From Nitrososphaerota archaeon (GTDB taxonomy: Archaea; Thermoproteota; Nitrososphaeria; Nitrososphaerales; Nitrosopumilaceae), in assembly GCA_028867755.1 (NCBI GenBank), contig JAGWFT010000001.1, positions 260,727 to 324,726 on the forward strand: a stretch of DNA of 64,000 nt, in the 5' to 3' direction. Made by a program: the position numbers and the translations under genes. Positions within the stretch are counted from its first letter, which is position 1. Each line of letters opens with the position of its first letter. Below the pieces are notes generated by a model, which was not told the origin of the DNA, did not search any database, and saw only the letters and a list, made by a program, of their open reading frames with translations. Below are positions 3,303 to 14,692 of this stretch, piece after piece.

Positions 3303-3785
3303 CTAAGTTTCTAGTCTAAATTCCTCAAAGTAGACCTTGCCATTCTCTACTGCCTTCTTAATGCTTTTTTGTCGTGGTGAGAGATCAGCCTCTCCAGTCT
3401 TTGCATCAATGAAAGTTATCTTGTCCACCTTGTTCTCATTGAAAAGTCCGTCAAAAGCTATAAAGTCAATTGGTTCTGCTAGAAACCTGCAATCCCTTGG
3501 TTGATGGCCAAAATTGGAGACTGTAGGTGCAAGATGCTCTAGCGTCTTTCCAATATAGACCTGTTTTGATTTTTCGATGGATTCTTGGATGATCTTCTTT
3601 TTCTTTACCTCGAACTCTTCTTGTGCCTGTCTTAATTGGTCTAACAGGTCTTGAGGTGGTTTTTTACCACTGAATATTTTAAATTCGTTCAATCTGTGGA
3701 TTGCCTGACAGTCCGGACATTGGGCATAGGTGTTCCTCTCTGCTTGTATGAAGTTGACAAGCAGCTTTGCTGCAGTATTTGGCAT
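3303..3785 (-). CDS. Archaeal Holliday-junction-resolvase-like PD-(D/E)xK endonuclease with N-terminal CxxC
   Basis: PIDFIAFDG..ITFIDAKTG..LSPRQKSIK nuclease motifs. Confidence 0.75.
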   Translation of the reverse strand: MPNTAAKLLVNFIQAERNTYAQCPDCQAIHRLNEFKIFSGKKPPQDLLDQLRQAQEEFEVKKKKIIQESIEKSKQVYIGKTLEHLAPTVSNFGHQPRDCRFLAEPIDFIAFDGLFNENKVDKITFIDAKTGEADLSPRQKSIKKAVENGKVYFEEFRLET

Positions 3786-4032: not shown

Positions 4033-4779
4033 ATGAGAATTTTATTAAAACTCCGTTCATTGGAAACACAAAAATACGATATGGGCTATCATCATAAATT
4101 ACAAAGCTTTATCTATAAAATGCTAATGACCCAAGGCTTAACTCAAATCCATGACAAAAAAGGTTACAAGTTTTTTTGTTTTTCAAATATTTTTCCCTCA
4201 AATAACATGCATAGGGGTGATCTAAAAAGTCTAATTATTTCATCGCCTAATGAAAAAATAATTCGTGCGTTTGAGAGGCAGGCACAACAGATAAGATCCG
4301 ATCAATCTTCTATTATGATAGGAAATATGACATTTATTCTTGATAGATTTGAAGTTTTCTCATTAAATTTACCTGACGATAATGTAAGAATGATAACAGG
4401 AACCCCAATTATTATCAGGATTCCAAGGGAACGATATTTGAAATATGGGATTAATCCTGAAATTCCATATAATTATATCTTCTGGCGTAAGGAACATCCG
4501 ATTGAAATGTTTATTGAACAGATTGAGGAAAACCTAAAGAAAAAATATGAAGAGTTCACAACAAAACCTGTTGTAGAAGAAACAATACTTAGTAAAATAA
4601 AATTTCGAAAGCAGATATCAAATAAGATTCCACTCAAAGGAGATATTCAGACAATAATAGGCACTCTGTGGGAATTCGATTTTCATAAAAAAGAGAACAT
4701 GGATCTATTACAGTTTAGTTTAGATGCAGGATTTGGAGAGAGAAACTCTCTTGGTTTTGGATTTATGAATTTACAATAG
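4033..4779 (+). CDS. cas6: CRISPR-associated endoribonuclease Cas6
   Basis: YKFFCFSNIF motif; C-terminal glycine-rich loop GFGERNSLGFG. Confidence 0.95.
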   Translation: MRILLKLRSLETQKYDMGYHHKLQSFIYKMLMTQGLTQIHDKKGYKFFCFSNIFPSNNMHRGDLKSLIISSPNEKIIRAFERQAQQIRSDQSSIMIGNMTFILDRFEVFSLNLPDDNVRMITGTPIIIRIPRERYLKYGINPEIPYNYIFWRKEHPIEMFIEQIEENLKKKYEEFTTKPVVEETILSKIKFRKQISNKIPLKGDIQTIIGTLWEFDFHKKENMDLLQFSLDAGFGERNSLGFGFMNLQ

Positions 4780-4813
4780 ATATTCTTAAAAATTACAATA
4801 GGATGCTGTCTTT

Positions 4814-6304
4814 GTGGAAATAATTTTCAAAAGAACTGGAGATTTTTGGATTGATTTGGGCATCATCTCTCTTTGGACTAGATTGGCCTCACAGGCCTCT
4901 AAACGAGGATCATCATATGTTACTCAGGTGAAGAGACATGGGAGATATGGTAAAGACATTCCAGTATTGAAGGTCATACTTTCTCCCGACCAATTATCTT
5001 TGATAGCCGAAAAAGAAAATGCCATTGTGGAGGAGTTAGATAAGACTTGCGTGAAGCTTTGCAATGATTATATAAGAAAAGCAAGTACTGGCAGAAACTG
5101 GTGGTGGGGAATTTCTAATTTTTTCTTCAAAAATACAAAACCGGAATCATTTTTTAAAAATCCTGAAGATATGGTTAAAGAACAGAAAGGTAAATGGAGT
5201 AAAGAAACATGCAATTTTTGTGGCCTTGAAAGAATGGTAAAAGATCTGGGAACTACTGAACACCCATTAGTTGTAACAAGTAAAAAATTCCAAAGTTTTT
5301 ACTCTGAGTTATCTACTAGTGTAAAGATATGTAATTATTGTACATTTGTAACAAAATTTGTTCCAACAAAGTTATTCTTCAATACTGGCAGAAATGCTAT
5401 TCTTGCAATGATGTTTGAAAGCTCGGATCTAATTACTTTAAATAATTTATATATTGAATTATCACGACTTTTCGCAGAGGCAAACGAATATGGAAACTTC
5501 CCAAACGTCCTTTCTTGGACTCAATATCCTGCAGAAACTTTCATGAATTTTCTATGTGCAATAAAAATAGAAACGACTAATTCAAATATTTTAAAAAATA
5601 CTCTTGAAAAGTTAGAGAATAGTAAAGCACATGTAATAAAAGGAACACTCGGACAAGGTCTTATAATTGCTAATTATATAATTATTCCAAATCTTTTCAA
5701 GACCTATAATTTTATTGAGCATTGTGACTGGAAATCTAAATCTGGTAAAAAGTATAATGCACTGATTAATACTTTGAAATTTCTAATGGTTAAAACATCA
5801 ACAGGAATGGATACTATTAAAAGAGAGGAATTCTGTCACCGCATATTCTATAGTTATGATGTGACAAATCTCTTATTTGAATTTCTCATTGATAATAGCT
5901 TAGGGAAAAGTCAGACAGGCAATTTACCATCTGCAGGCTTTTCAGGATTTAATATAGAAGTATTTATCACTAAGTATGAAAAAATACTCGCGTACATGAA
6001 CCAGTATCAGATTGACATCTCAAAAGAAATTGGGGCTATGATTGGTGATCTAGCAAAGAAGACTGGGAAGAAATCATTATTGTATTCTCTTCGTAGTGCA
6101 AGAAACTTGAATGACCTCTTAGCGTTCATCAATGAGATTCTGAACAGCTATCTGGACATGATAATATTAGATCGAAATCACATAGATGGCCTTCTTAAGG
6201 CAATAGATAACTCCAATTGGTCCACATACAAGTCTCTCATAGGAATTCATGCAGTCTTGTCTTTCCTAGAAAATAATGAATTAGTAGAGGTAAAAAGCAG
6301 ATGA
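4814..6304 (+). CDS. cas8: Type I-B large subunit Cas8 (Cst1/CXXC-CXXC type)
   Basis: Lies between cas6 and cas7; two CxxC motifs (CNFC, CNYC); N-terminal TGDFWIDLG. Confidence 0.85.
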   Translation: MEIIFKRTGDFWIDLGIISLWTRLASQASKRGSSYVTQVKRHGRYGKDIPVLKVILSPDQLSLIAEKENAIVEELDKTCVKLCNDYIRKASTGRNWWWGISNFFFKNTKPESFFKNPEDMVKEQKGKWSKETCNFCGLERMVKDLGTTEHPLVVTSKKFQSFYSELSTSVKICNYCTFVTKFVPTKLFFNTGRNAILAMMFESSDLITLNNLYIELSRLFAEANEYGNFPNVLSWTQYPAETFMNFLCAIKIETTNSNILKNTLEKLENSKAHVIKGTLGQGLIIANYIIIPNLFKTYNFIEHCDWKSKSGKKYNALINTLKFLMVKTSTGMDTIKREEFCHRIFYSYDVTNLLFEFLIDNSLGKSQTGNLPSAGFSGFNIEVFITKYEKILAYMNQYQIDISKEIGAMIGDLAKKTGKKSLLYSLRSARNLNDLLAFINEILNSYLDMIILDRNHIDGLLKAIDNSNWSTYKSLIGIHAVLSFLENNELVEVKSR

Positions 6305-7287
6305 CAAGTAAAGCAATAACAATAGGAATACTATTCAAGGTCGAGGTAGGCAATGTTAATGCCGGGTGGACGGAAGGTGTAGTAACCATAATGAAAAAAG
6401 TTGAGCTTCCTGATGGTAATTCTCATCCATATATTTCCGGCCAAGCCATGCGAAGATATATGCGAGATACTATGCAGGATATAATAACTGGAACATCAGA
6501 ACAAATGTCTCCATCAGATCAGGCTAAAGACAAACGAGGAAAATCGCCAATCACTACCCTTGGTGATCCTAGGAAATATATCGATGATGATCTTTTCGGA
6601 TTTATGAGGGCAGTAAAAAAAGATCGGAAAGAAAAGGGTAAGGAAAAAGATGAAGAGTCTGAAATCGGTTCTACTCGAAAACGAACATCTCCATTAAGAG
6701 TATCTGCTGCATTTGGTTTTTTCAAATTTACTGGAAACAGAGATTTGGGAACAAAAAGTTCCATAGAGCATTCAGGTTCGGCTGAATCTGGCGGATCAAT
6801 TTTTGAAACTGAGATCACTAACAACATTTTCAAAAATAATCTCATGCTTGAATTAGATCGAGTTGGTGTATGGAAAGATTATGAAACAACAGATGAAGAG
6901 GGAGAGGGAAGTCTTTCGGAAATTCAAAGAAAAGAGAGAATAAAGATTATGATTAAATCGCTCAAATATCTATGGGGAGGCGGAAGACAAAGTAGATTCC
7001 TTGTTGATTTGACCCCACAATTTATCATTTATGCGAGAATGTCTAAGAAGGTTCCAATTTTTCTAAATTCTCTAAATATTACATATGAAAATTCCCAATA
7101 TTATCTAGGCTCTGCGATACAAGAGGCCCTCAAAGACTATGAACAAGACATTGAGAATGTAATTATCGGGTCCAGAGATGGATTTTTAAAAAATGTTAAT
7201 AATTTAGAAAACAATGGAAGAGCAGTACAAACCATAGGGAATGCAATAGATATGATGATAAAAGACATTGACACAGCAAAAATCTGA
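6301..7287 (+). CDS. cas7: Cas7 (Cst2/DevR type)
   Basis: N-AGW.EG, PYISGQAMRR, DDDLFGFM and RTSPLRVS motifs. Confidence 0.93.
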   Translation: MTSKAITIGILFKVEVGNVNAGWTEGVVTIMKKVELPDGNSHPYISGQAMRRYMRDTMQDIITGTSEQMSPSDQAKDKRGKSPITTLGDPRKYIDDDLFGFMRAVKKDRKEKGKEKDEESEIGSTRKRTSPLRVSAAFGFFKFTGNRDLGTKSSIEHSGSAESGGSIFETEITNNIFKNNLMLELDRVGVWKDYETTDEEGEGSLSEIQRKERIKIMIKSLKYLWGGGRQSRFLVDLTPQFIIYARMSKKVPIFLNSLNITYENSQYYLGSAIQEALKDYEQDIENVIIGSRDGFLKNVNNLENNGRAVQTIGNAIDMMIKDIDTAKI

Positions 7288-8011
7288 AACTAATCAGAAA
7301 AATATACAAGCAGTTTGTCTTACTGTGAGAGGAGATTTTAATTCATATAGAATTTCTACAAATATAAAATATCAACGGAGTTATATTATTCCTACAAAAA
7401 CAACTCTAATTGGTATGCTTGGTGCTGCGCTTGGGATACAAAATAAAGAACTCGAAATTCTTTTTAAAACAGTCAAGACTAACGCTGTTTTAATTTCACT
7501 TATGGGCCGTGCAAAAGATCTATGGCTTGTAAGTAAACTAAAAGTAGATGGTAATCATGAAAAATCTCCAATAATGAGAGAAGTTCTGGTCAATCCAGTA
7601 TACATGATCTACTATCAGGCAGATAACGACATGATTTTAAAAATTATTGATGCGTTAAAAGATCCAAAATTTGTACTTAGTCTTGGTAGGTCTGATGAAA
7701 TGATAGAAATAAAAGAAATCCAAACACTAAAACTGACCGAAACAAAAGGTATAGCCAGTTTTAAAAATACAATTATTCCATTCAATTATAGAAGTCTCTT
7801 TCTTGCCTATGAAACTATGCCTGTACAAAGAGGAACAACCATGGAATTGCCAGAAGTGATTAACATACCTGTTTCTTTTGAATACGATTCAGCTGGCAGA
7901 AGAAAAGTAAGTGAGTCAAAAGATGTTACTATTATTTATGAACTTGGTATAAAATTAAAAGATTCGTCTGGAGCGTGGAGTGATGGAAAACGAAATCTAT
8001 TCCTTTACTAA
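7268..8011 (+). CDS. cas5: Cas5
   Basis: SY.IP.KTTLIGMLGAALG motif and LSLGRSDE glycine loop. Confidence 0.92.
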   Translation: MTQQKSETNQKNIQAVCLTVRGDFNSYRISTNIKYQRSYIIPTKTTLIGMLGAALGIQNKELEILFKTVKTNAVLISLMGRAKDLWLVSKLKVDGNHEKSPIMREVLVNPVYMIYYQADNDMILKIIDALKDPKFVLSLGRSDEMIEIKEIQTLKLTETKGIASFKNTIIPFNYRSLFLAYETMPVQRGTTMELPEVINIPVSFEYDSAGRRKVSESKDVTIIYELGIKLKDSSGAWSDGKRNLFLY

Positions 8012-10199
8012 AATTCTTGCAAAATCTGAACCAGAAGAGACTCTTGAGGAACACATAGAAAATGTACTCAAATTTCTCATCAAATTCATAAAATGGAAGA
8101 AAAAAGAAATAAAAAAAATATCTGAAATTACCGGCTTGCACAGAACTGAAATTCAAGGAAGATTATTTGCAACAGCATATTTACATGATATTGGAAAATG
8201 TAGCAATTCATTTCAGAGATTTATAAGAAAGGAACAATCTAACCGCTTTCCTCACGCTCTTTTAGGACTTCCCTTTATCATATCTGCAGTAGATCCGTTG
8301 TCAGTAGAAGATACAACAATTTATCCTGAAGCAATTTCAGTAATGTCCCATCATACTCCGTTTTATGATGGTCTTTACGCGTATGAAAAAGATAACCCAC
8401 CTAATAAATTTTTAATTATAAATAAAGCACTTGAATTTTATAATAAAATCGAACAATCATATTCCAATATATTCAAAGAAAAATATCCATTTCAATTAGG
8501 TAACCCAGATCTAGACTCATCGTTGTCTACCCTCTTGGAAAAAATCAAAAACCCTCTAAAATTTAATCGGCCCACACATCTTAGGGAAATTCATTCTTTT
8601 TTCGTGAATTTTTTGCATACTGTAGATTGGCTTGGTAGTGGAAAAACGTTTGATTATCAGTATTCGGTAAAAAGCATTTCCGAGAAGATTGCAAATGAAT
8701 TGAAACAAAAAAAAAGTTTGACTTCTTGGAATGAAATTCAAATTAAAGCATCACATACGTATGGCAATTTGCTTCTTTGTGCCCCCACTGGTCAGGGGAA
8801 AACAGAAGCTGCACTATTATGGGCTGATAGAAATATGTATCATGATAAGATAATTTATCTATTACCTACGCGGGTTACAACGAATGCACTCTATAAGAGA
8901 TTAAAATTCCTTGGAGATTCTGTTGGTGTATCACATGGAACTTCAGCTTTAATTATTGCAGAGGAAGAACAATGGAATAACAAAAGAATTATGGCAAGAA
9001 GATTACGTTCTGGTTCTTTTATGGAACCAATTACTGTTGCAACGGTTGACCAGTTATTATTACCACATTTTAATTGGAAGTATTGGGAAATGATTGAACA
9101 AAATGCATCTAACGCTGCAATCGTCTTAGATGAAATTCATGCATATGATTACTACACTCTAGCTTTGATCACTGAGATGATCAAAAAATTTCCACGGAGT
9201 CGTTTTGCTTATCTCTCAGCCACTTTACCAAAGTATATTCAAAATCATCTTACTAACTTGCATGAAGAAAAAATTACCACTATTGTGGACTATGAACATC
9301 TTGATTTATCAAGACATAACATACAATTTATCGAGACTACTATTGATAATTCAGTTGACGAAGTAAAACAATATTACAAAGAAGGTAAGAAGGTGTTGAT
9401 CATATTAAACACTGTCAAAGAAGCAACTCGATTTTACAAGAATTTTTTAGATCTTAATTCCATACTTTATCATTCTAGATTCATAGAGAAAGACAGACGC
9501 AAGAAAGAAGAATTAATTGAAGAAGCAAATGACAAAAACAAAGGTTGTATCGTTGTTGCTACACAGGTAGTAGAGGTCAGTCTTGATATCGATTTTGATA
9601 TTCTTTTCACTCAGATTGCACCACTGGACGCTCTGATTCAACGTTTAGGGAGAGTGAATAGAAAAGGTAAAAAATCCACAGATATTACTAACGTGAAAAT
9701 ATATGATTTTGGTGAATTTGATTATATGGTATATGGACTAGATAATCTACAAAATGCAAGAGAAATTGCGTCTACATGGTTTTCTGTTAAACATAGATTG
9801 AAAGAAAATGAAATTCAGGATTTAATAGAATGGCAATATCCACAAGAAAAAACCTCTGCTAGTTTTCTAGAAGAATGGGATAGAGTTCACGAGGATCTAG
9901 AATGGTTTAGAAATCAATTATGGGATATTCAAACTCTTCGAATGAAAGATGATATGAAGGTACTTATGAAGTTAGCAAAAACCAGACAAGATAAATTTCC
10001 TGAAATTGCTGTAATTCCTGAAATGTTCAAAGATGAAGTTAATCTCTTGCAGCCGAGTAGAAAACTTCAAGTTATTGAATATCTAGTCAAGGTACCATTT
10101 TCTCAGTTCAAGAACGGTATTAGGCCTGCAAAAGATGATTCTGATCTAGTCTTTTGTAAAATGGATTATAGCTTTGAATATGGTGCTGACGCGCTTTGA
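7980..10199 (+). CDS. cas3: Cas3 HD nuclease-helicase
   Basis: LHDIGK HD motif, APTGQGKTE Walker A, DEIH box, ATQVVEVSLDID, QRLGRVNR. Confidence 0.96.
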   Translation: MMENEIYSFTKILAKSEPEETLEEHIENVLKFLIKFIKWKKKEIKKISEITGLHRTEIQGRLFATAYLHDIGKCSNSFQRFIRKEQSNRFPHALLGLPFIISAVDPLSVEDTTIYPEAISVMSHHTPFYDGLYAYEKDNPPNKFLIINKALEFYNKIEQSYSNIFKEKYPFQLGNPDLDSSLSTLLEKIKNPLKFNRPTHLREIHSFFVNFLHTVDWLGSGKTFDYQYSVKSISEKIANELKQKKSLTSWNEIQIKASHTYGNLLLCAPTGQGKTEAALLWADRNMYHDKIIYLLPTRVTTNALYKRLKFLGDSVGVSHGTSALIIAEEEQWNNKRIMARRLRSGSFMEPITVATVDQLLLPHFNWKYWEMIEQNASNAAIVLDEIHAYDYYTLALITEMIKKFPRSRFAYLSATLPKYIQNHLTNLHEEKITTIVDYEHLDLSRHNIQFIETTIDNSVDEVKQYYKEGKKVLIILNTVKEATRFYKNFLDLNSILYHSRFIEKDRRKKEELIEEANDKNKGCIVVATQVVEVSLDIDFDILFTQIAPLDALIQRLGRVNRKGKKSTDITNVKIYDFGEFDYMVYGLDNLQNAREIASTWFSVKHRLKENEIQDLIEWQYPQEKTSASFLEEWDRVHEDLEWFRNQLWDIQTLRMKDDMKVLMKLAKTRQDKFPEIAVIPEMFKDEVNLLQPSRKLQVIEYLVKVPFSQFKNGIRPAKDDSDLVFCKMDYSFEYGADAL

Positions 10200-10215
10200 A
10201 TCACCATATTGTTCA

Positions 10216-10236
10216 GTTTGAATCGAACTATTGTAG
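10216..10236 (+). repeat. Inverted 21-nt partial CRISPR repeat (anti-repeat)
   Basis: GTTTGAATCGAACTATTGTAG is the exact reverse complement of nt 10-30 of the plus-strand repeat. Confidence 0.9.
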
Positions 10237-10263
10237 CCTCATTCACTAATTTTTCAATTATAT

Positions 10264-12675
10264 CTTTCAATCCTACAATAGTTCGATTCAAACATGTTTG
10301 ACCCAACTGTTTTAATCGTTTGTGTAGCAGTCTTTCAATCCTACAATAGTTCGATTCAAACAGGTTTTGTTAGATCATGTGTAGTTTTTGGTATTGTCTT
10401 TCAATCCTACAATAGTTCGATTCAAACCAGAGTAAACGTATATCTGTGTTCTTGTTTCTGCATCCTTTCAATCCTACAATAGTTCGATTCAAACTGCATC
10501 CTGGAACTGGAACAAGTTTGGCTATGACAGACTTTCAATCCTACAATAGTTCGATTCAAACTTTGCAGATGACACCAACGAATCAGCACTCTTGATCCTT
10601 TCAATCCTACAATAGTTCGATTCAAACATTGAGAAAATTCGTATGGAGCTAGAATCATCTATCCTTTCAATCCTACAATAGTTCGATTCAAACCGTTGAC
10701 ACAACTTTTTGCAACAGATGTTTTGAGCACTTTCAATCCTACAATAGTTCGATTCAAACCTCGGAGATGCCTTCGTAGGCATTGGTATGCTAATCTTTCA
10801 ATCCTACAATAGTTCGATTCAAACATGGTAGATTATTTCTGGCCGTTGCAATTGTAATCGCCTTTCAATCCTACAATAGTTCGATTCAAACCCATATCCA
10901 GTTAATCTAACCATTAATGACAATCTACTTTCAATCCTACAATAGTTCGATTCAAACACATATTCAAAAGGCCAACTGAGACAGTCATAAAGACTTTCAA
11001 TCCTACAATAGTTCGATTCAAACTCAATATACGCATATCACCACGAATTAAAGAAGATACTTTCAATCCTACAATAGTTCGATTCAAACGTGTCACCAAA
11101 ATCTCCTGGTGCATTAATGCAAGAGACTTTCAATCCTACAATAGTTCGATTCAAACTGGTGAAAAATTCACAAACACAATGACAGAAAGATACTTTCAAT
11201 CCTACAATAGTTCGATTCAAACTGGCTCGTTTGCTCCAGGAAGAGAATTGGTATGTAGCTTTCAATCCTACAATAGTTCGATTCAAACACATCTTGACAT
11301 TAACAGAACTAAACTCAAGATCAACTTTCAATCCTACAATAGTTCGATTCAAACATTTACATTCCAGCAAAACTAGAAAAGAAAGTTGTCCTTTCAATCC
11401 TACAATAGTTCGATTCAAACAATTATTGTAATGTTCTTTCTGTATGGATTAGTAACCTTTCAATCCTACAATAGTTCGATTCAAACAACTCCAGCTGGCT
11501 GGCGTCCCACAAGATGGAGCCACTTTCAATCCTACAATAGTTCGATTCAAACATGATTGTCTTATTTGTCGGCCTGCAACTACCACTTTCAATCCTACAA
11601 TAGTTCGATTCAAACTGCCTTTTGGAGAAATGAAAGATTTGACATAGTTAACTTTCAATCCTACAATAGTTCGATTCAAACTTTGACAAGAACCCTCCAG
11701 TCTCCATCCTTGGGATACTTTCAATCCTACAATAGTTCGATTCAAACGGCAATATATGTAAGCATTGTATTGCCTTTATCACTCTTTCAATCCTACAATA
11801 GTTCGATTCAAACTCTAATCATTGGCTCTTTTTTCCATTTTATGACTAGCTTTCAATCCTACAATAGTTCGATTCAAACTACTGTGATGTCCGAGAATCT
11901 TCCAAGTCTGACCTGTCTTTCAATCCTACAATAGTTCGATTCAAACCTGTGTTGTTACAGATCCAACAAACGGTCTCTGCTACTTTCAATCCTACAATAG
12001 TTCGATTCAAACGAGATTGTACTTCATTTTTACACTTGTCTCGATATACTTTCAATCCTACAATAGTTCGATTCAAACCTAGTGCAGGCTTTGTTTTCCA
12101 TCCCTTGTTACCATCTTTCAATCCTACAATAGTTCGATTCAAACCAGCTACTGCATTTACTGTACCCTCGTTTGGTGTTATCTTTCAATCCTACAATAGT
12201 TCGATTCAAACTCTATTCTCCCTAGCTCTTTTAGCAACCTTATCTTTCTTTCAATCCTACAATAGTTCGATTCAAACTGGAGTAGGGGCTGGAGTAGGTG
12301 ATGGTGATGGTATCTTTCAATCCTACAATAGTTCGATTCAAACAGGATTACCAGCAGTCAGAAAGATTTGCCATGTACACTTTCAATCCTACAATAGTTC
12401 GATTCAAACGTCTTTACTACATAATAGAAGACAGTTTCCGATGAATCTTTCAATCCTACAATAGTTCGATTCAAACTATCGAATTTCTTCGAATCCTTGT
12501 TGTATTTGAACCACTTTCAATCCTACAATAGTTCGATTCAAACAATATATTGTGTCATATTTTTATTATTTTTACTGATCTTTCAATCCTACAATAGTTC
12601 GATTCAAACTTATTCTAATATGATGTTGTCGAGGTGTTCGAATCCCTTTCAATCCTACAATAGTTCGATTCAAAC
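10264..12675 (-). CRISPR. CRISPR array, 37 repeats / 36 spacers (about 33-38 nt); repeat GTTTGAATCGAACTATTGTAGGATTGAAAG on the minus strand
   Basis: 30-nt repeat CTTTCAATCCTACAATAGTTCGATTCAAAC recurs with a ~66-nt period. Orientation is inferred from the ATTGAAAG 3' handle and the AT-rich leader on the right. Confidence 0.98.
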
Positions 12676-12800
12676 CGCCAGTTTTTTCAACGGATTTATG
12701 CATACTTTAATCGATAAGCCCTTTTAGTTTTTCGGCAACCTCCAATAGTGCAGTCTACTTATAAAAGCAACTTTTCAAGCGCGTAATGCATCACAGTTAA
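12676..12800 (-). promoter_or_regulatory. CRISPR leader
   Basis: Non-coding AT-rich stretch adjoining the 5'-most repeat, with TTATAA near 12758-12763; right boundary approximate. Confidence 0.65.
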
Positions 12801-12860
12801 TAATCTAGTCAGCAATTTGTCACCCATCATTCTATAGTTTTTTTATAACATATTGAATAA

Positions 12861-13370
12861 TTGGAGGCGTTCACAGATGCAGGCCTGACCCATACTGGCT
12901 CTGAGATTAACTATTATTTTGTATGCAAAAGAAAACTCTGGCTTTTTTCTCATAACATAGAATTAGAGTCTGATTCTGATCTTGTGCTGCAAGGTAAACT
13001 TTTGCATGAACACAGCTACAAAAGGAAATTAAAAGAGATTGCAATTGACAAGATAAAGATCGATTTCATAGAGAAAACAAATGAAGTGCATGAAATAAAA
13101 CGTTCAAGAAAAATAGAGGATGCTCATGTGTATCAGCTGCTATACTATCTGTACTATCTCAAAAAATATGCCGGACTTGACACAAAGGGAGTCCTTAACT
13201 ATCCGTTGCTTAAAAAAACTGTAAAGGTAGAGCTAACTCCACAAAAAGAAAGAGAGCTGCAAAAGATAATTCAGAAAATAGATCAGATAACAGAACTTGT
13301 AAAACCTCCAGAGGCAAAATGGATATCATACTGCAAGAGTTGTGCATATAGTGAGATGTGCTGGGGATGA
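12861..13370 (+). CDS. cas4: Cas4
   Basis: YYFVCKRKLWL, KIDF..EIK RecB motif, QLLYYLYYL, C-terminal CKSCAYSEMC. Confidence 0.95.
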   Translation: MEAFTDAGLTHTGSEINYYFVCKRKLWLFSHNIELESDSDLVLQGKLLHEHSYKRKLKEIAIDKIKIDFIEKTNEVHEIKRSRKIEDAHVYQLLYYLYYLKKYAGLDTKGVLNYPLLKKTVKVELTPQKERELQKIIQKIDQITELVKPPEAKWISYCKSCAYSEMCWG

Positions 13371-14353
13371 AAGATTACTATGTATTTAAAAATGGAAGAT
13401 TGCGCAGAAGCGAAAACACCATAAAATTAGAATCATCAACAGGAGAGAAAAAATCTCTTCCCATACATGATATCTATTCCATACATCTGTTTGGCGAGAC
13501 TGATCTTAACACAAAACTGATTGTATTTCTAAACCAGCACGGAATCCCGCTACACTTTTACAATTATTATGGATATTATTCAGGAAGTTTTTATCCGCGA
13601 GAAAAACTACTCTCCGGATTTCTTATCGTAAAGCAAGTACAGCATTATCTTGATTCTCACAAGAGGCTGGAAATTGCAAAAGAATTTGTCAGAACATCTA
13701 TACATAACATTCTCTCGAATTTACAACAATACAGCAAGAGAGGCAAAGACATGGGCGAATTCATCTCAAGAATTAAAGGTGAATCTGAGGCCATTGAGGG
13801 AGTAACCAATATTCCAGAACTTATGGGAGTAGAAGGCAGATCAAGGCAGGCATACTTCTCCTCCTTTGATTCATTTTTAAGAAAGGGATTCGAGTTTGAA
13901 AAAAGAACCAAGCTTCCTCCCCAGAACATGCTTAATAGCCTGATATCATTTGGAAATTCTTTGCTTTATGCTACAATACTTACAGAAATCTACCATACGC
14001 AGCTCACGCCAACTATAAGTTATCTTCACGAACCAGGCGAGAGGAGATACTCTCTTTCTCTTGATATAAGTGAGATATTCAAACCTATCATAGTAGACAG
14101 GGTCATCTTTAATCTTATCAATAACAGAATCATAAAACCAGAACACTTTGACAACAAGCTAAAAGCCAGTTTTCTAAACGAACAAGGAAGAAAGATCTTT
14201 GTATCTGAATACAAGAAGAAGCTTGAAACTACAGTTCACAATACCACCTTAAAGAGAAATATCAGCTATCAGCGCCTGATAAGAATAGAATGCTTCAAGC
14301 TAATCAAACACATACTTGATGAACGAGCCTACAAAGGCCTTAGGAGCAAATGA
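13367..14353 (+). CDS. cas1: Cas1 (type I-B); probable start MKDYY at 13367
   Basis: HFYNYYGYYSGSFYPRE, LMGVEG, NSLISFGNSLLY, SYLHEP, LSLDISEIFKP. Confidence 0.96.
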   Translation: MKDYYVFKNGRLRRSENTIKLESSTGEKKSLPIHDIYSIHLFGETDLNTKLIVFLNQHGIPLHFYNYYGYYSGSFYPREKLLSGFLIVKQVQHYLDSHKRLEIAKEFVRTSIHNILSNLQQYSKRGKDMGEFISRIKGESEAIEGVTNIPELMGVEGRSRQAYFSSFDSFLRKGFEFEKRTKLPPQNMLNSLISFGNSLLYATILTEIYHTQLTPTISYLHEPGERRYSLSLDISEIFKPIIVDRVIFNLINNRIIKPEHFDNKLKASFLNEQGRKIFVSEYKKKLETTVHNTTLKRNISYQRLIRIECFKLIKHILDERAYKGLRSK

Positions 14354-14617
14354 ATGTACGTGATTATTGTTTATGATATCGAGGTGGAAAGAATTGATGC
14401 GGTCAGGCATATATTAAAACAATATCTGACGTGGATACAAAACTCTGTCTTTGAAGGAGAGATAACAGAGGGTCATCTTGAAGAATTAGGATTCAAGCTG
14501 TTTGAGCTCATAGAGAAAGAAAAGGATTCTATAATTGTTTATTCAATAAATAATCCATCGTGGATAAAAAAAAGAGTCTGGGGCAAAGAAAAGAATATGA
14601 CAACAAATATTTTGTAG
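14354..14617 (+). CDS. cas2: Cas2
   Basis: MYVIIVYDI...YLTWIQNSVFEG. Confidence 0.96.
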   Translation: MYVIIVYDIEVERIDAVRHILKQYLTWIQNSVFEGEITEGHLEELGFKLFELIEKEKDSIIVYSINNPSWIKKRVWGKEKNMTTNIL

Positions 14618-14655: not shown

Positions 14656-14692
14656 TTCAACATAAAGCATTCATCAAAACAAGGATTGAAAC
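14656..14692 (+). repeat. Solitary CRISPR-like repeat of a different (~37-nt) family
   Basis: TTCAACATAAAGCATTCATCAAAACAAGGATTGAAAC ends in the AAAACAAGGATTGAAAC signature and shares AGGATTGAAA with the array repeat. Confidence 0.6.

Follow-up and report, generated by a model that had tools for sequence, protein, structure and literature searches.

Leader-repeat hairpins that counter extraneous crRNAs in type II-A CRISPR systems were reportedly described by Liao et al. in 2022. Work on extraneous crRNAs is said to have covered two situations so far: systems whose first repeat is the extra one, which use leader-repeat hairpins, and systems whose last repeat is the extra one, which are thought to mutate it. 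Leader-repeat hairpins block the extraneous crRNA in II-A and VI systems (PMC13187072), and repeat-guide systems usually silence their extra repeat by mutating that repeat (PMC13187072, PMC12080349). In the hairpin systems (II-A; VI-B and others, Migur et al. 2026, PMC13187072), a flank outside the array is complementary to the spacer-less extra repeat, is predicted to lock it away from the processing enzyme, and is conserved among related loci. The locus described here has such a complementary flank, predicted to lock away the extra repeat and kept in all four lineages of its clade though absent from other relatives, and it differs from the known cases in several respects. Pairing there takes place in the leader, whereas here it is the last repeat that is extra, with its partner in the trailer (the class 1 repeat-guide configuration, PMC13187072); the system is of type I-B with Cas6, in an archaeal host; the pairing sequence is the repeat itself, copied exactly and inverted, rather than an evolved complementary stretch; and the arrangement belongs to one small clade, where it is known from sequence and predicted folds.

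The locus lies in a 64,000-nucleotide stretch of DNA, called the window below, from a member of the Nitrosopumilaceae. It is of type I-B by its genes (cas6, cas8b, cas7, cas5, cas3, cas4, cas1 and cas2, identified with Pfam) and by a repeat that ends in ATTGAAAG. The plus-strand operon contains cas6 (4033..4779), a Pf-type Cas6 endoribonuclease gene (Cas_Cas6_C, 1.7e-15) whose product has 5yi6 and 3pkm (P. furiosus Cas6) as its nearest solved chains, followed by the Cascade genes cas8b, cas7 and cas5 (4814..8011; Cas_CXXC_CXXC, DevR and Cas_Cas5d) and, as its final gene, cas3 (7980..10199), which encodes the HD nuclease and helicase (Cas3_HD, DEAD and Cas3-like_C_2). The CRISPR array (10264..12675, minus strand), the only one in the 1.64-Mb genome, consists of 37 identical 30-nt repeats and 36 spacers of 33-38 nt. 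Beyond it lie a minus-strand leader (12676..12860), with a TATA box at about 12759-12766 and a GGAGGTTG motif at about 12735-12745, and, divergent from this leader, the plus-strand adaptation module cas4, cas1 and cas2 (12861..14617; Cas_Cas4, Cas_Cas1 and CRISPR_Cas2). Both leader motifs are conserved in the aligned leaders of L042, L044, L125 and L127. The sense strand of the array is the minus strand, because the repeat has ATTGAAAG at its 3' end and because the leader motifs are common to canonical relatives whose array follows cas2 on the cas strand. Since the cas6-cas8b-cas7-cas5-cas3 genes are read from the plus strand, cas3 and the array converge, as had been proposed in a preliminary description of this DNA.

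The inverted copy sits between these convergent units. The 21 nt at 10216-10236 (plus strand) match nt 1-21 of the repeat in sense orientation at 21/21 positions; written along the plus strand, they are the reverse complement, again 21/21, of the last 21 nt of each repeat, and they are complementary over their full length (21/21) to all 37 repeats in the array. This 21-mer, or anti-repeat, lies 16 nt from the cas3 stop (10197-10199) and 27 nt from the terminal repeat (10264-10293, minus strand), so that both the exact match and the spacings given in the preliminary description are confirmed. The match is beyond chance (expectation of 0 matches, 100 shuffles), and the leader flank of the array has no anti-repeat (best score 6). 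The terminal, extra repeat is identical to the consensus and pairs with the anti-repeat through its nt 1-21 (10273-10293); the 27-nt trailer segment between the two (10237..10263, with no strand assigned) makes up a 36-nt loop together with repeat nt 22-30.

Next to the 21-mer is a possible decayed second inverted copy (10194..10214, plus strand), which overlaps the cas3 stop and is identical to the 21-mer at 14/21 positions. It is weaker than the 21-mer (P ~0.01 against background windows), and is seen in L039 and L042 and absent from L040/L041. Two direct-repeat interpretations of this region were rejected. The 21-mer is not a degenerate terminal repeat, because the copy is inverted, matches exactly along 21 nt and stands 27 nt away from the last repeat. 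The segment 10194-10223 might be read as an old terminal repeat in direct orientation, with the 21-mer inside its "spacer", but its identity to the repeat is only 18/30 and this reading gives no account of a 21/21 inverted match that starts at repeat nt 1.

Homologues of the Cas3 protein were found in metagenomes at 97, 89, 89 and 70% identity. The preliminary description had reckoned with the possibility that no homologous locus keeps a complementary anti-repeat; in fact all three of the other lineages in which cas3 faces the array (Cas3 97%, 89% and 89% identical) retain it in the same position. The comparison thus covers four lineages, all from a single common ancestor: the window, L039, L040/L041 and L042/L124. 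A junction-pattern search of JGI metagenomes offered L124 as an additional lineage, which was rejected since it is the strain of L042, with identical spacers. The anti-repeat lies 2-18 nt past the cas3 stop across lineages, within a very short trailer of 53-64 nt between that stop and the last repeat, and the counterparts of 10237-10263 are 22-30 nt long. The first 15 nt of this segment are kept in L039 and L042, while the remainder is variable and L040/L041 cannot be aligned. The inverted copy begins exactly at repeat nt 1 in every lineage, and the tag is absent from it in the window, L039 and L042. In L040/L041 the copy is full length, with a 5-nt bulge and then the tag region, so that the stem there covers the cleavage site as well; the sequence downstream of that copy is not conserved.

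Across the four lineages, only one of the 21 positions of the 21-mer has changed, so that it surpasses in conservation the fourfold sites of cas3, which are 76-80% identical per pair (~20-24% divergence), and its flanks in L040/L041 are unalignable. About 8 changes would be expected in the 21-mer over the tree, and our own Poisson estimate gives P ~0.002 for the single change found.

Folding predictions for the window give a stem of 21 bp, formed by the anti-repeat and the terminal repeat, on either RNA, with energies of -38.2 kcal/mol (z -5.8) for the minus strand and -32 kcal/mol (z -5.0) for the plus strand, in agreement with the earlier suggestion that the hairpin forms on both transcripts. 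On the pre-crRNA strand, the predicted fold is strong in the window, L039 and L040 (z -4.2 to -6.5) and weaker in L042 (z -1.9), which has an internal A-C mismatch. The plus-strand stem of L042 is better preserved than its minus-strand stem, with 20 bp, one of them G-U, and z -3.2. The array repeat of L042 is altered at position 18 and the inverted copy is not, and its two arms differ at two positions. The covariation of the anti-repeat with its own repeat for which the preliminary description had hoped does not appear: there are 19 invariant pairs, 1 one-sided change and 1 broken pair, and the count of 0 compensatory changes in the four lineages has little power with 19/21 pairs invariant. 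Because the element is kept in every lineage with this layout and is conserved above the level of fourfold sites, a functional hairpin is plausible, whether it silences the terminal extraneous crRNA or insulates the two units; to that extent the earlier proposals stand, short of any support from compensatory change.

How could such a hairpin act? The explanation that we favour, tentatively and with somewhat less than even confidence, is that it makes the terminal extra repeat inaccessible to Cas6 and gives the pre-crRNA a cap. The Cas6 of P. furiosus binds the first 10 nt of the repeat single-stranded and cuts between nt 22 and 23 (review PMC5965381), and cleavage by the I-B enzyme Cas6b depends on local repeat structure (PMC3479195). 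Transcription of the array would begin at its own leader promoter and proceed along the minus strand, and RNA polymerase would pass through the 21-mer; read-through is suggested because three of the four lineages (the window, L039 and L042) have no T-run of at least 4 between the terminal repeat and the 21-mer on that strand. Within the cell, the nascent RNA would then pair back onto the repeat made ~36 nt before, such that the 21-bp stem would mask repeat nt 1-21 and leave G22 and the 8-nt ATTGAAAG tag in the loop, much as the preliminary description had envisaged for the handle. Cas6 enzymes of this unstructured-repeat class grip the first ~10 nt of the repeat single-stranded and cut 8 nt from the 3' end. 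Since the enzyme needs a single-stranded repeat start, the duplex should keep it off the terminal spacer-less repeat. Neither an extraneous crRNA nor a tag-bearing tail of antisense cas3 sequence would be loaded into Cascade, presumably with some benefit to fitness, and the pre-crRNA would finish in a nuclease-resistant cap. The usual mutational route to silencing is not used here, because the terminal repeat is intact in all four lineages; compared with loci that have mutated or degenerate terminal repeats (PMC13187072, PMC12080349), this one keeps the consensus and has an added element that is inverted, not direct.

Several considerations count against a shielding hairpin. The sample is a single clade, its four lineages stem from one ancestor, and the stem shows no compensatory change, with the copy in L042 not tracking repeat position 18. 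In L040, a T5 on the minus strand within the loop could halt transcription ahead of the copy. No trailer hairpin is found in L130, L131 or L129, which have near-identical repeats and perfect terminal repeats, so blocking the extra repeat is no general need in the family. We infer, further, that selection for silencing should be weak, as the extra crRNA is 1/37 of the total and the most weakly expressed. Finally, no flanking anti-repeat above background was found in ~119 other arrays (92 + 27), a survey that takes in members of the family whose repeats are nearly the same, as well as 17 arrays whose trailer end is faced by a convergent gene. The anti-repeat is not a general feature.

The shielding hairpin nevertheless has a wider interest. 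Perhaps class 1 systems can solve the problem of the extra repeat, or of convergent cas and array transcription, by means of an inverted repeat copy encoded in the trailer, which folds onto the terminal repeat, excludes Cas6 and caps both transcripts; we would not quite give this even odds. If it is true, the element would mirror the leader-repeat hairpins of II-A and VI systems, having evolved independently of them, and neither type I systems nor archaea would have furnished such a device before. The hairpin solution would then have arisen at the opposite array end too, in ammonia-oxidising archaea whose type I system depends on Cas6, and would show how compact archaeal loci cope with head-on cas and CRISPR transcription. 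With 21 nt and one stem, the element is a clean, small object for testing how a Pf-type Cas6 discriminates between single-stranded and duplexed repeats.

The strongest competitor, which we consider possible though rather doubtful, is a functionless scar of rearrangement. The cas6-cas3 operon would have come to face the trailer of a module made up of array, leader, cas4, cas1 and cas2, with one repeat copy becoming inverted beside the cas3 stop, and the copy would have persisted by chance, because it is young, or through occasional gene conversion between this arm and that of the array. Such a history fits the restriction of the element to one small clade with this layout and its absence from the 92 + 27 other arrays, near-same-repeat relatives and all 17 convergent-trailer arrays among them. 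It also fits the stem without compensatory changes, the module shuffling seen in the Cas3 family, and the local signs of rearrangement, namely the decayed second copy, the full-length copy with its 5-nt insertion in L040, and a chimeric repeat in L043 (see below). However, neutral retention is unlikely to leave 1 change in 21 nt (P ~0.002) between replaced flanks and against 20-24% pairwise fourfold divergence, and the neighbouring second copy, decayed to 14/21, gives the picture of an unconstrained copy. Gene conversion is not holding the arms of L042 identical. Even as a scar, the element would document repeat copies left over from the reshuffling of CRISPR modules.

Simple one-step inversions do not produce the orientation in which the copy is found. 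Relatives with Cas3 at ~50% identity were rejected as intermediates, as they have the canonical order cas3-cas4-cas1-cas2-leader-array with nothing repeat-like after cas3. Within the genus and order, no Cas3 relative exceeds 31-40% identity among 59 genomes (a tally that includes the unpublished G010, G011, G017, G026 and G032, which enter into no other result given here). A scan of genome contigs with the single Cas3 protein gave no match, an alignment-based Cas3 scan gave 80 loci with none from the close clade, and no C-terminal Cas3 fragments that might lead to further junctions were found on short contigs.

A second alternative places the function mainly on the plus strand, or on both, with the palindrome acting as a 3'-end cap and an insulator between the convergent units. 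Read-through RNA from the cas genes would fold its sense 21-mer onto the first antisense repeat, and 3'-to-5' exonucleases would trim both transcripts back to the stem, thereby stabilising the cas mRNA and limiting antisense crRNA and antisense cas3 RNA. The position of the element, in a 53-64-nt gap and 2-18 nt past the cas3 stop, is well suited to such a role, as are the strong plus-strand fold and the stem of L042, which has outlasted its minus-strand equivalent. Only loci in which cas3 faces the array have the element; L130 and L131, where cas3 does not face it, have none. For I-B and III-B systems, antisense CRISPR transcripts have been documented (PMC5965381). Like the bidirectional hairpin terminators of convergent bacterial genes, this palindrome lies between convergent units and is predicted to form on both RNAs, but here the loop is 36 nt, the host is an archaeon, and no U-tract follows the stem on either strand. 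T-runs vary in place and strand among the four lineages, with none conserved past the stem, and the segment 9900-10500 holds 0 intrinsic terminator-like sites (hairpin plus T-run), so that the bidirectional terminator put forward in the preliminary description is, in its classical form, not supported. Archaeal termination is generally driven by oligo-T and is not known to require hairpins, and the T5/T6 ahead of the 21-mer on the plus strand in L039 and L042 could stop cas3 transcripts upstream of it. The element is lacking at 17 other convergent gene-trailer junctions. We regard the cap or insulator as unlikely. Matches to sigma-70 promoters in the region were set aside, being at shuffle level in number and irrelevant in an archaeon.

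Considerably less probable is the idea that the 21-mer, in sense orientation on the cas mRNA, itself serves to bind a protein, either as a decoy or autoregulatory site that Cas6 can bind but not cut, or as a repeat-like regulatory unit (CreA/CreR, mini-array) of which it is a remnant or a still active part. The 21-mer does hold precisely the part of the repeat bound by Pf-type Cas6 (PMC5965381), with cleavage site and tag missing in three lineages, and in L042 it retained its sequence when that of the array repeat was altered. Type I loci commonly have standalone repeat-like units in the neighbourhood of cas3 and cas6 (Shmakov et al. 2023, PMC10120712), and the anti-repeat resembles them as a solitary repeat-derived sequence beside cas3 in a type I cas locus. 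Unlike the CreA/CreR units, however, it has neither a 5' tag with a conserved spacer-like guide nor a second flanking repeat-like unit, it is opposite in orientation to the array, and the terminal repeat, not a promoter, is what it would most obviously pair with. The T-runs ahead of the copy in two lineages may leave it outside the cas mRNA altogether. We know of no precedent for Cas6 autoregulation through a site in a 3' UTR. No copies of the repeat were found in viral contigs, so there is no link to phage-borne solitary repeats.

The trans-acting, repeat-pairing RNA of the preliminary description can be set aside as very improbable: although a small RNA bearing the anti-repeat would be perfectly complementary to all 37 repeats and, like the tracrRNA anti-repeat of types II and V, is encoded beside cas genes, the 21-mer is not a tracrRNA, because the 99.95% complete genome has no RNase III family gene (no match to PF14622 or PF00636, with bacterial controls positive) and no Cas9 or Cas12, while cas6 is present, the only Rfam match in the window at gathering thresholds is a tRNA, no TATA-like promoter conserved among the four lineages is seen by eye upstream of the anti-repeat on the minus strand, there is no terminator of its own, and the repeat transcribed 36 nt before, as part of one RNA with it, should be the kinetically favoured partner. 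Any action would be in cis on a single repeat.

A last observation concerns L043, the relative with the 70% identical Cas3. Immediately past its cas3 stop stands a single chimeric repeat, which looks like a collapsed palindrome.

The window holds a type I-B locus in complete form; the archaeon is an ammonia oxidiser, its genome having amoA, and related Cas3 proteins carry the labels Nitrososphaeraceae or Nitrosopumilus. On the plus strand, cas6, cas8b, cas7, cas5 and cas3 (4033-10199) are followed by a minus-strand array (10264-12675) in which a 30-nt repeat occurs 37 times without variation, the sole array in the 1.64-Mb genome. A 185-nt leader comes next, and finally cas4, cas1 and cas2, again on the plus strand (12861-14617). 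The array thus lies between cas3 and cas4, with its leader divergent from cas4-cas1-cas2 (10264-14617). [quoted passage not shown] The convergence of the cas3 operon and the array, claimed in the preliminary description, is thereby borne out.

Nucleotides 1-21 of the repeat recur as an exact inverted copy at 10216-10236 (+), placed, as first reported, 16 nt past the cas3 stop and 27 nt short of the terminal repeat; no inverted 21-nt match is expected by chance. In agreement with the earlier suggestion of a hairpin on both transcripts, a hairpin is predicted on either RNA strand, its 21-bp stem closing a loop of 36 nt in which the 8-nt tag and G22 lie; the predicted energy is -38.2 kcal/mol (z -5.8) for the minus strand and -32 kcal/mol (z -5.0) for the plus strand. 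Overlapping the cas3 stop is a further copy on the plus strand, now decayed (10194-10214; 14/21, P about 0.01).

Is the anti-repeat kept elsewhere? Close Cas3 homologues number only four among 5.8 billion proteins, encoded by loci L039 (97% identity), L040/L041 (89%), L042 (89%; of one strain with the JGI contig L124) and L043 (70%). All three lineages with Cas3 identity of at least 89% have the 21-mer at the equivalent site, with the array facing cas3; in each it starts precisely with repeat nt 1, and lies 2-18 nt past the cas3 stop and 22-30 nt away from a terminal repeat that is unmutated in every lineage with the 21-mer. The possibility that no homologous locus keeps an anti-repeat, allowed for at the outset, thus did not hold, since all three other lineages with this layout retain it. 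Among the three deep lineages, identity at fourfold-degenerate cas3 sites is just 76-80%, and in L040/L041 the sequence flanking the 21-mer is unalignable with the window and the last cas3 codons differ too. With the tree amounting to about 0.4 substitutions per site, some 8 changes would be expected in the 21-mer; a single one is seen in the whole set, G21 to A in L042, and by a Poisson estimate the probability of at most one is about 0.002. The L040/L041 inverted copy is essentially full length, resuming with the tag region after a 5-nt insertion, so that its predicted stem extends over the cleavage site. L043, which has no array on its contig, carries 1 nt past the cas3 stop a single degenerate, chimeric repeat (6271-6301) whose 9-nt ends are complementary, followed by an unrelated gene start; tentatively, this may be a collapsed palindrome, perhaps left after array loss.

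Covariation of the anti-repeat with its own repeat, proposed earlier as a check, is not supported: 19 of the 21 stem pairs are invariant, one has a one-sided change, one is broken, and no compensatory change occurs among the compared lineages. In L042 the array repeat is altered at position 18 in all copies while the inverted copy is unchanged there, and the latter has its own change at position 21; each strand thereby has a wobble pair and a mismatch, the mismatch being internal on the pre-crRNA strand (17 bp + 3 bp; z -1.9) and terminal on the cas strand (20 bp; z -3.2). That the arms differ at these two positions also shows that gene conversion is not homogenising them at present. In the L042/L124 lineage (L124 544-675), a spacer-repeat unit occurs twice in tandem with identical consecutive spacers, a unit duplication within the array.

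Beyond this clade, 200-nt flanks were scanned for inverted repeat matches in 27 arrays from loci encoding Cas3 relatives and in 92 arrays (167 ends, 77 distinct repeats) around Cas1 genes in 401 genomes of the phylum. The top score was 9, equal to reversed and complemented controls, against 21 in the window. Neither an anti-repeat nor a predicted trailer hairpin is present in three family or order relatives with nearly the same repeat and perfect terminal repeats (L129, L130, L131). In 17 other arrays a convergent ORF stops no more than 150 nt from the trailer, and all of them lack an anti-repeat. The anti-repeat is therefore rare and clade-specific, not general to I-B arrays or convergent junctions.

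What might it do? The encoded Cas6 is of the P. furiosus type, an enzyme that recognises the initial 10 nt of an unstructured repeat by their sequence and cleaves between nt 22 and nt 23 (PMC5965381); I-B Cas6b leaves an identical 8-nt tag, and it responds to local structure in the repeat (PMC3479195). A minus-strand transcript reaching the 21-mer would lock nt 1-21 of the terminal repeat in duplex. The extra repeat, which has no spacer, closes the array in class 1 systems, and mutation of this repeat is the reported means of silencing it there, whereas types II-A and VI rely on a hairpin between leader and repeat (PMC13187072, PMC12080349). Considering that the terminal repeat is intact and a partner lies in the trailer, a mirror-image trailer hairpin that hides this repeat from Cas6 is the most economical functional reading, and one we put forward tentatively. 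Silencing of the terminal extraneous crRNA, as originally proposed, is in keeping with retention of the anti-repeat beside an intact terminal repeat, but draws no support from covariation. The sequence facts on the anti-repeat and its conservation are solid; its function is a well-posed, cheaply testable hypothesis based on four related lineages only.

A serious, if somewhat unlikely, rival is that the anti-repeat has no function and is a scar left when a rearrangement brought the two modules together; its restriction to one clade, the absence of covariation and the signs that rearrangement has recurred locally all speak for this. Second among functional readings, and improbable, is a 3'-end cap where the two convergent units meet, acting on the plus strand or in both directions: the anti-repeat is seen only where cas3 faces the array, but no conserved T-run follows the stem, no intrinsic-terminator-like site was found, and T5/T6 lies ahead of the copy on the cas strand in two lineages, so the bidirectional terminator first envisaged loses ground. 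A Cas6 decoy or cr-like regulatory unit is very improbable for an element that has no tag, guide or second repeat. The trans-acting, tracrRNA-like RNA once suggested is the least credible of all, as cas6 is present and no RNase III gene (in the genome), Rfam match or conserved promoter was found; tracrRNA identity is rejected on these grounds.

The anti-repeat is predicted to work like leader-repeat hairpins but, sitting in the trailer, is not a member of that class; it is likewise neither a degenerate terminal repeat, a mini-array nor an intrinsic terminator. In a limited literature search, no paper was found to describe an anti-repeat encoded in the trailer of a type I system, which falls short of proving that none has been published.

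The array-leader-cas4-cas1 module has an identical layout in L130 (8255-10633) and L131 (5427-9500), without a cas3 facing the trailer, and the canonical order cas3-cas4-cas1-cas2-leader-array is found in three relatives with about 50% Cas3 identity (L044, L125, L127). On the contig of another such relative, P0006, cas2-cas1-cas4 lies in reverse orientation ahead of cas6, and cas3 is followed by a 61-aa piece of cas4, which shows that adaptation-module shuffling is recurrent in this Cas3 family. About 65 nt after the cas2 stop, the window carries on the cas strand an orphan repeat-like 3' end (…CAAGGATTGAAAC; 14656-14692, core 14680-14692); L042 has a similar motif after its cas2 (~6330-6350). 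Since canonical relatives have their leader and array at this position, the motif may be what is left of an ancestral array site; alternatively, it may be a cr-like regulatory unit. Upstream of cas6 lies an Endonuc_Holl family gene, related to the archaeal Holliday junction resolvase (window 3303-3785, minus strand; L040 1307-1813, minus strand), which could be a conserved neighbour or a cas-associated gene.
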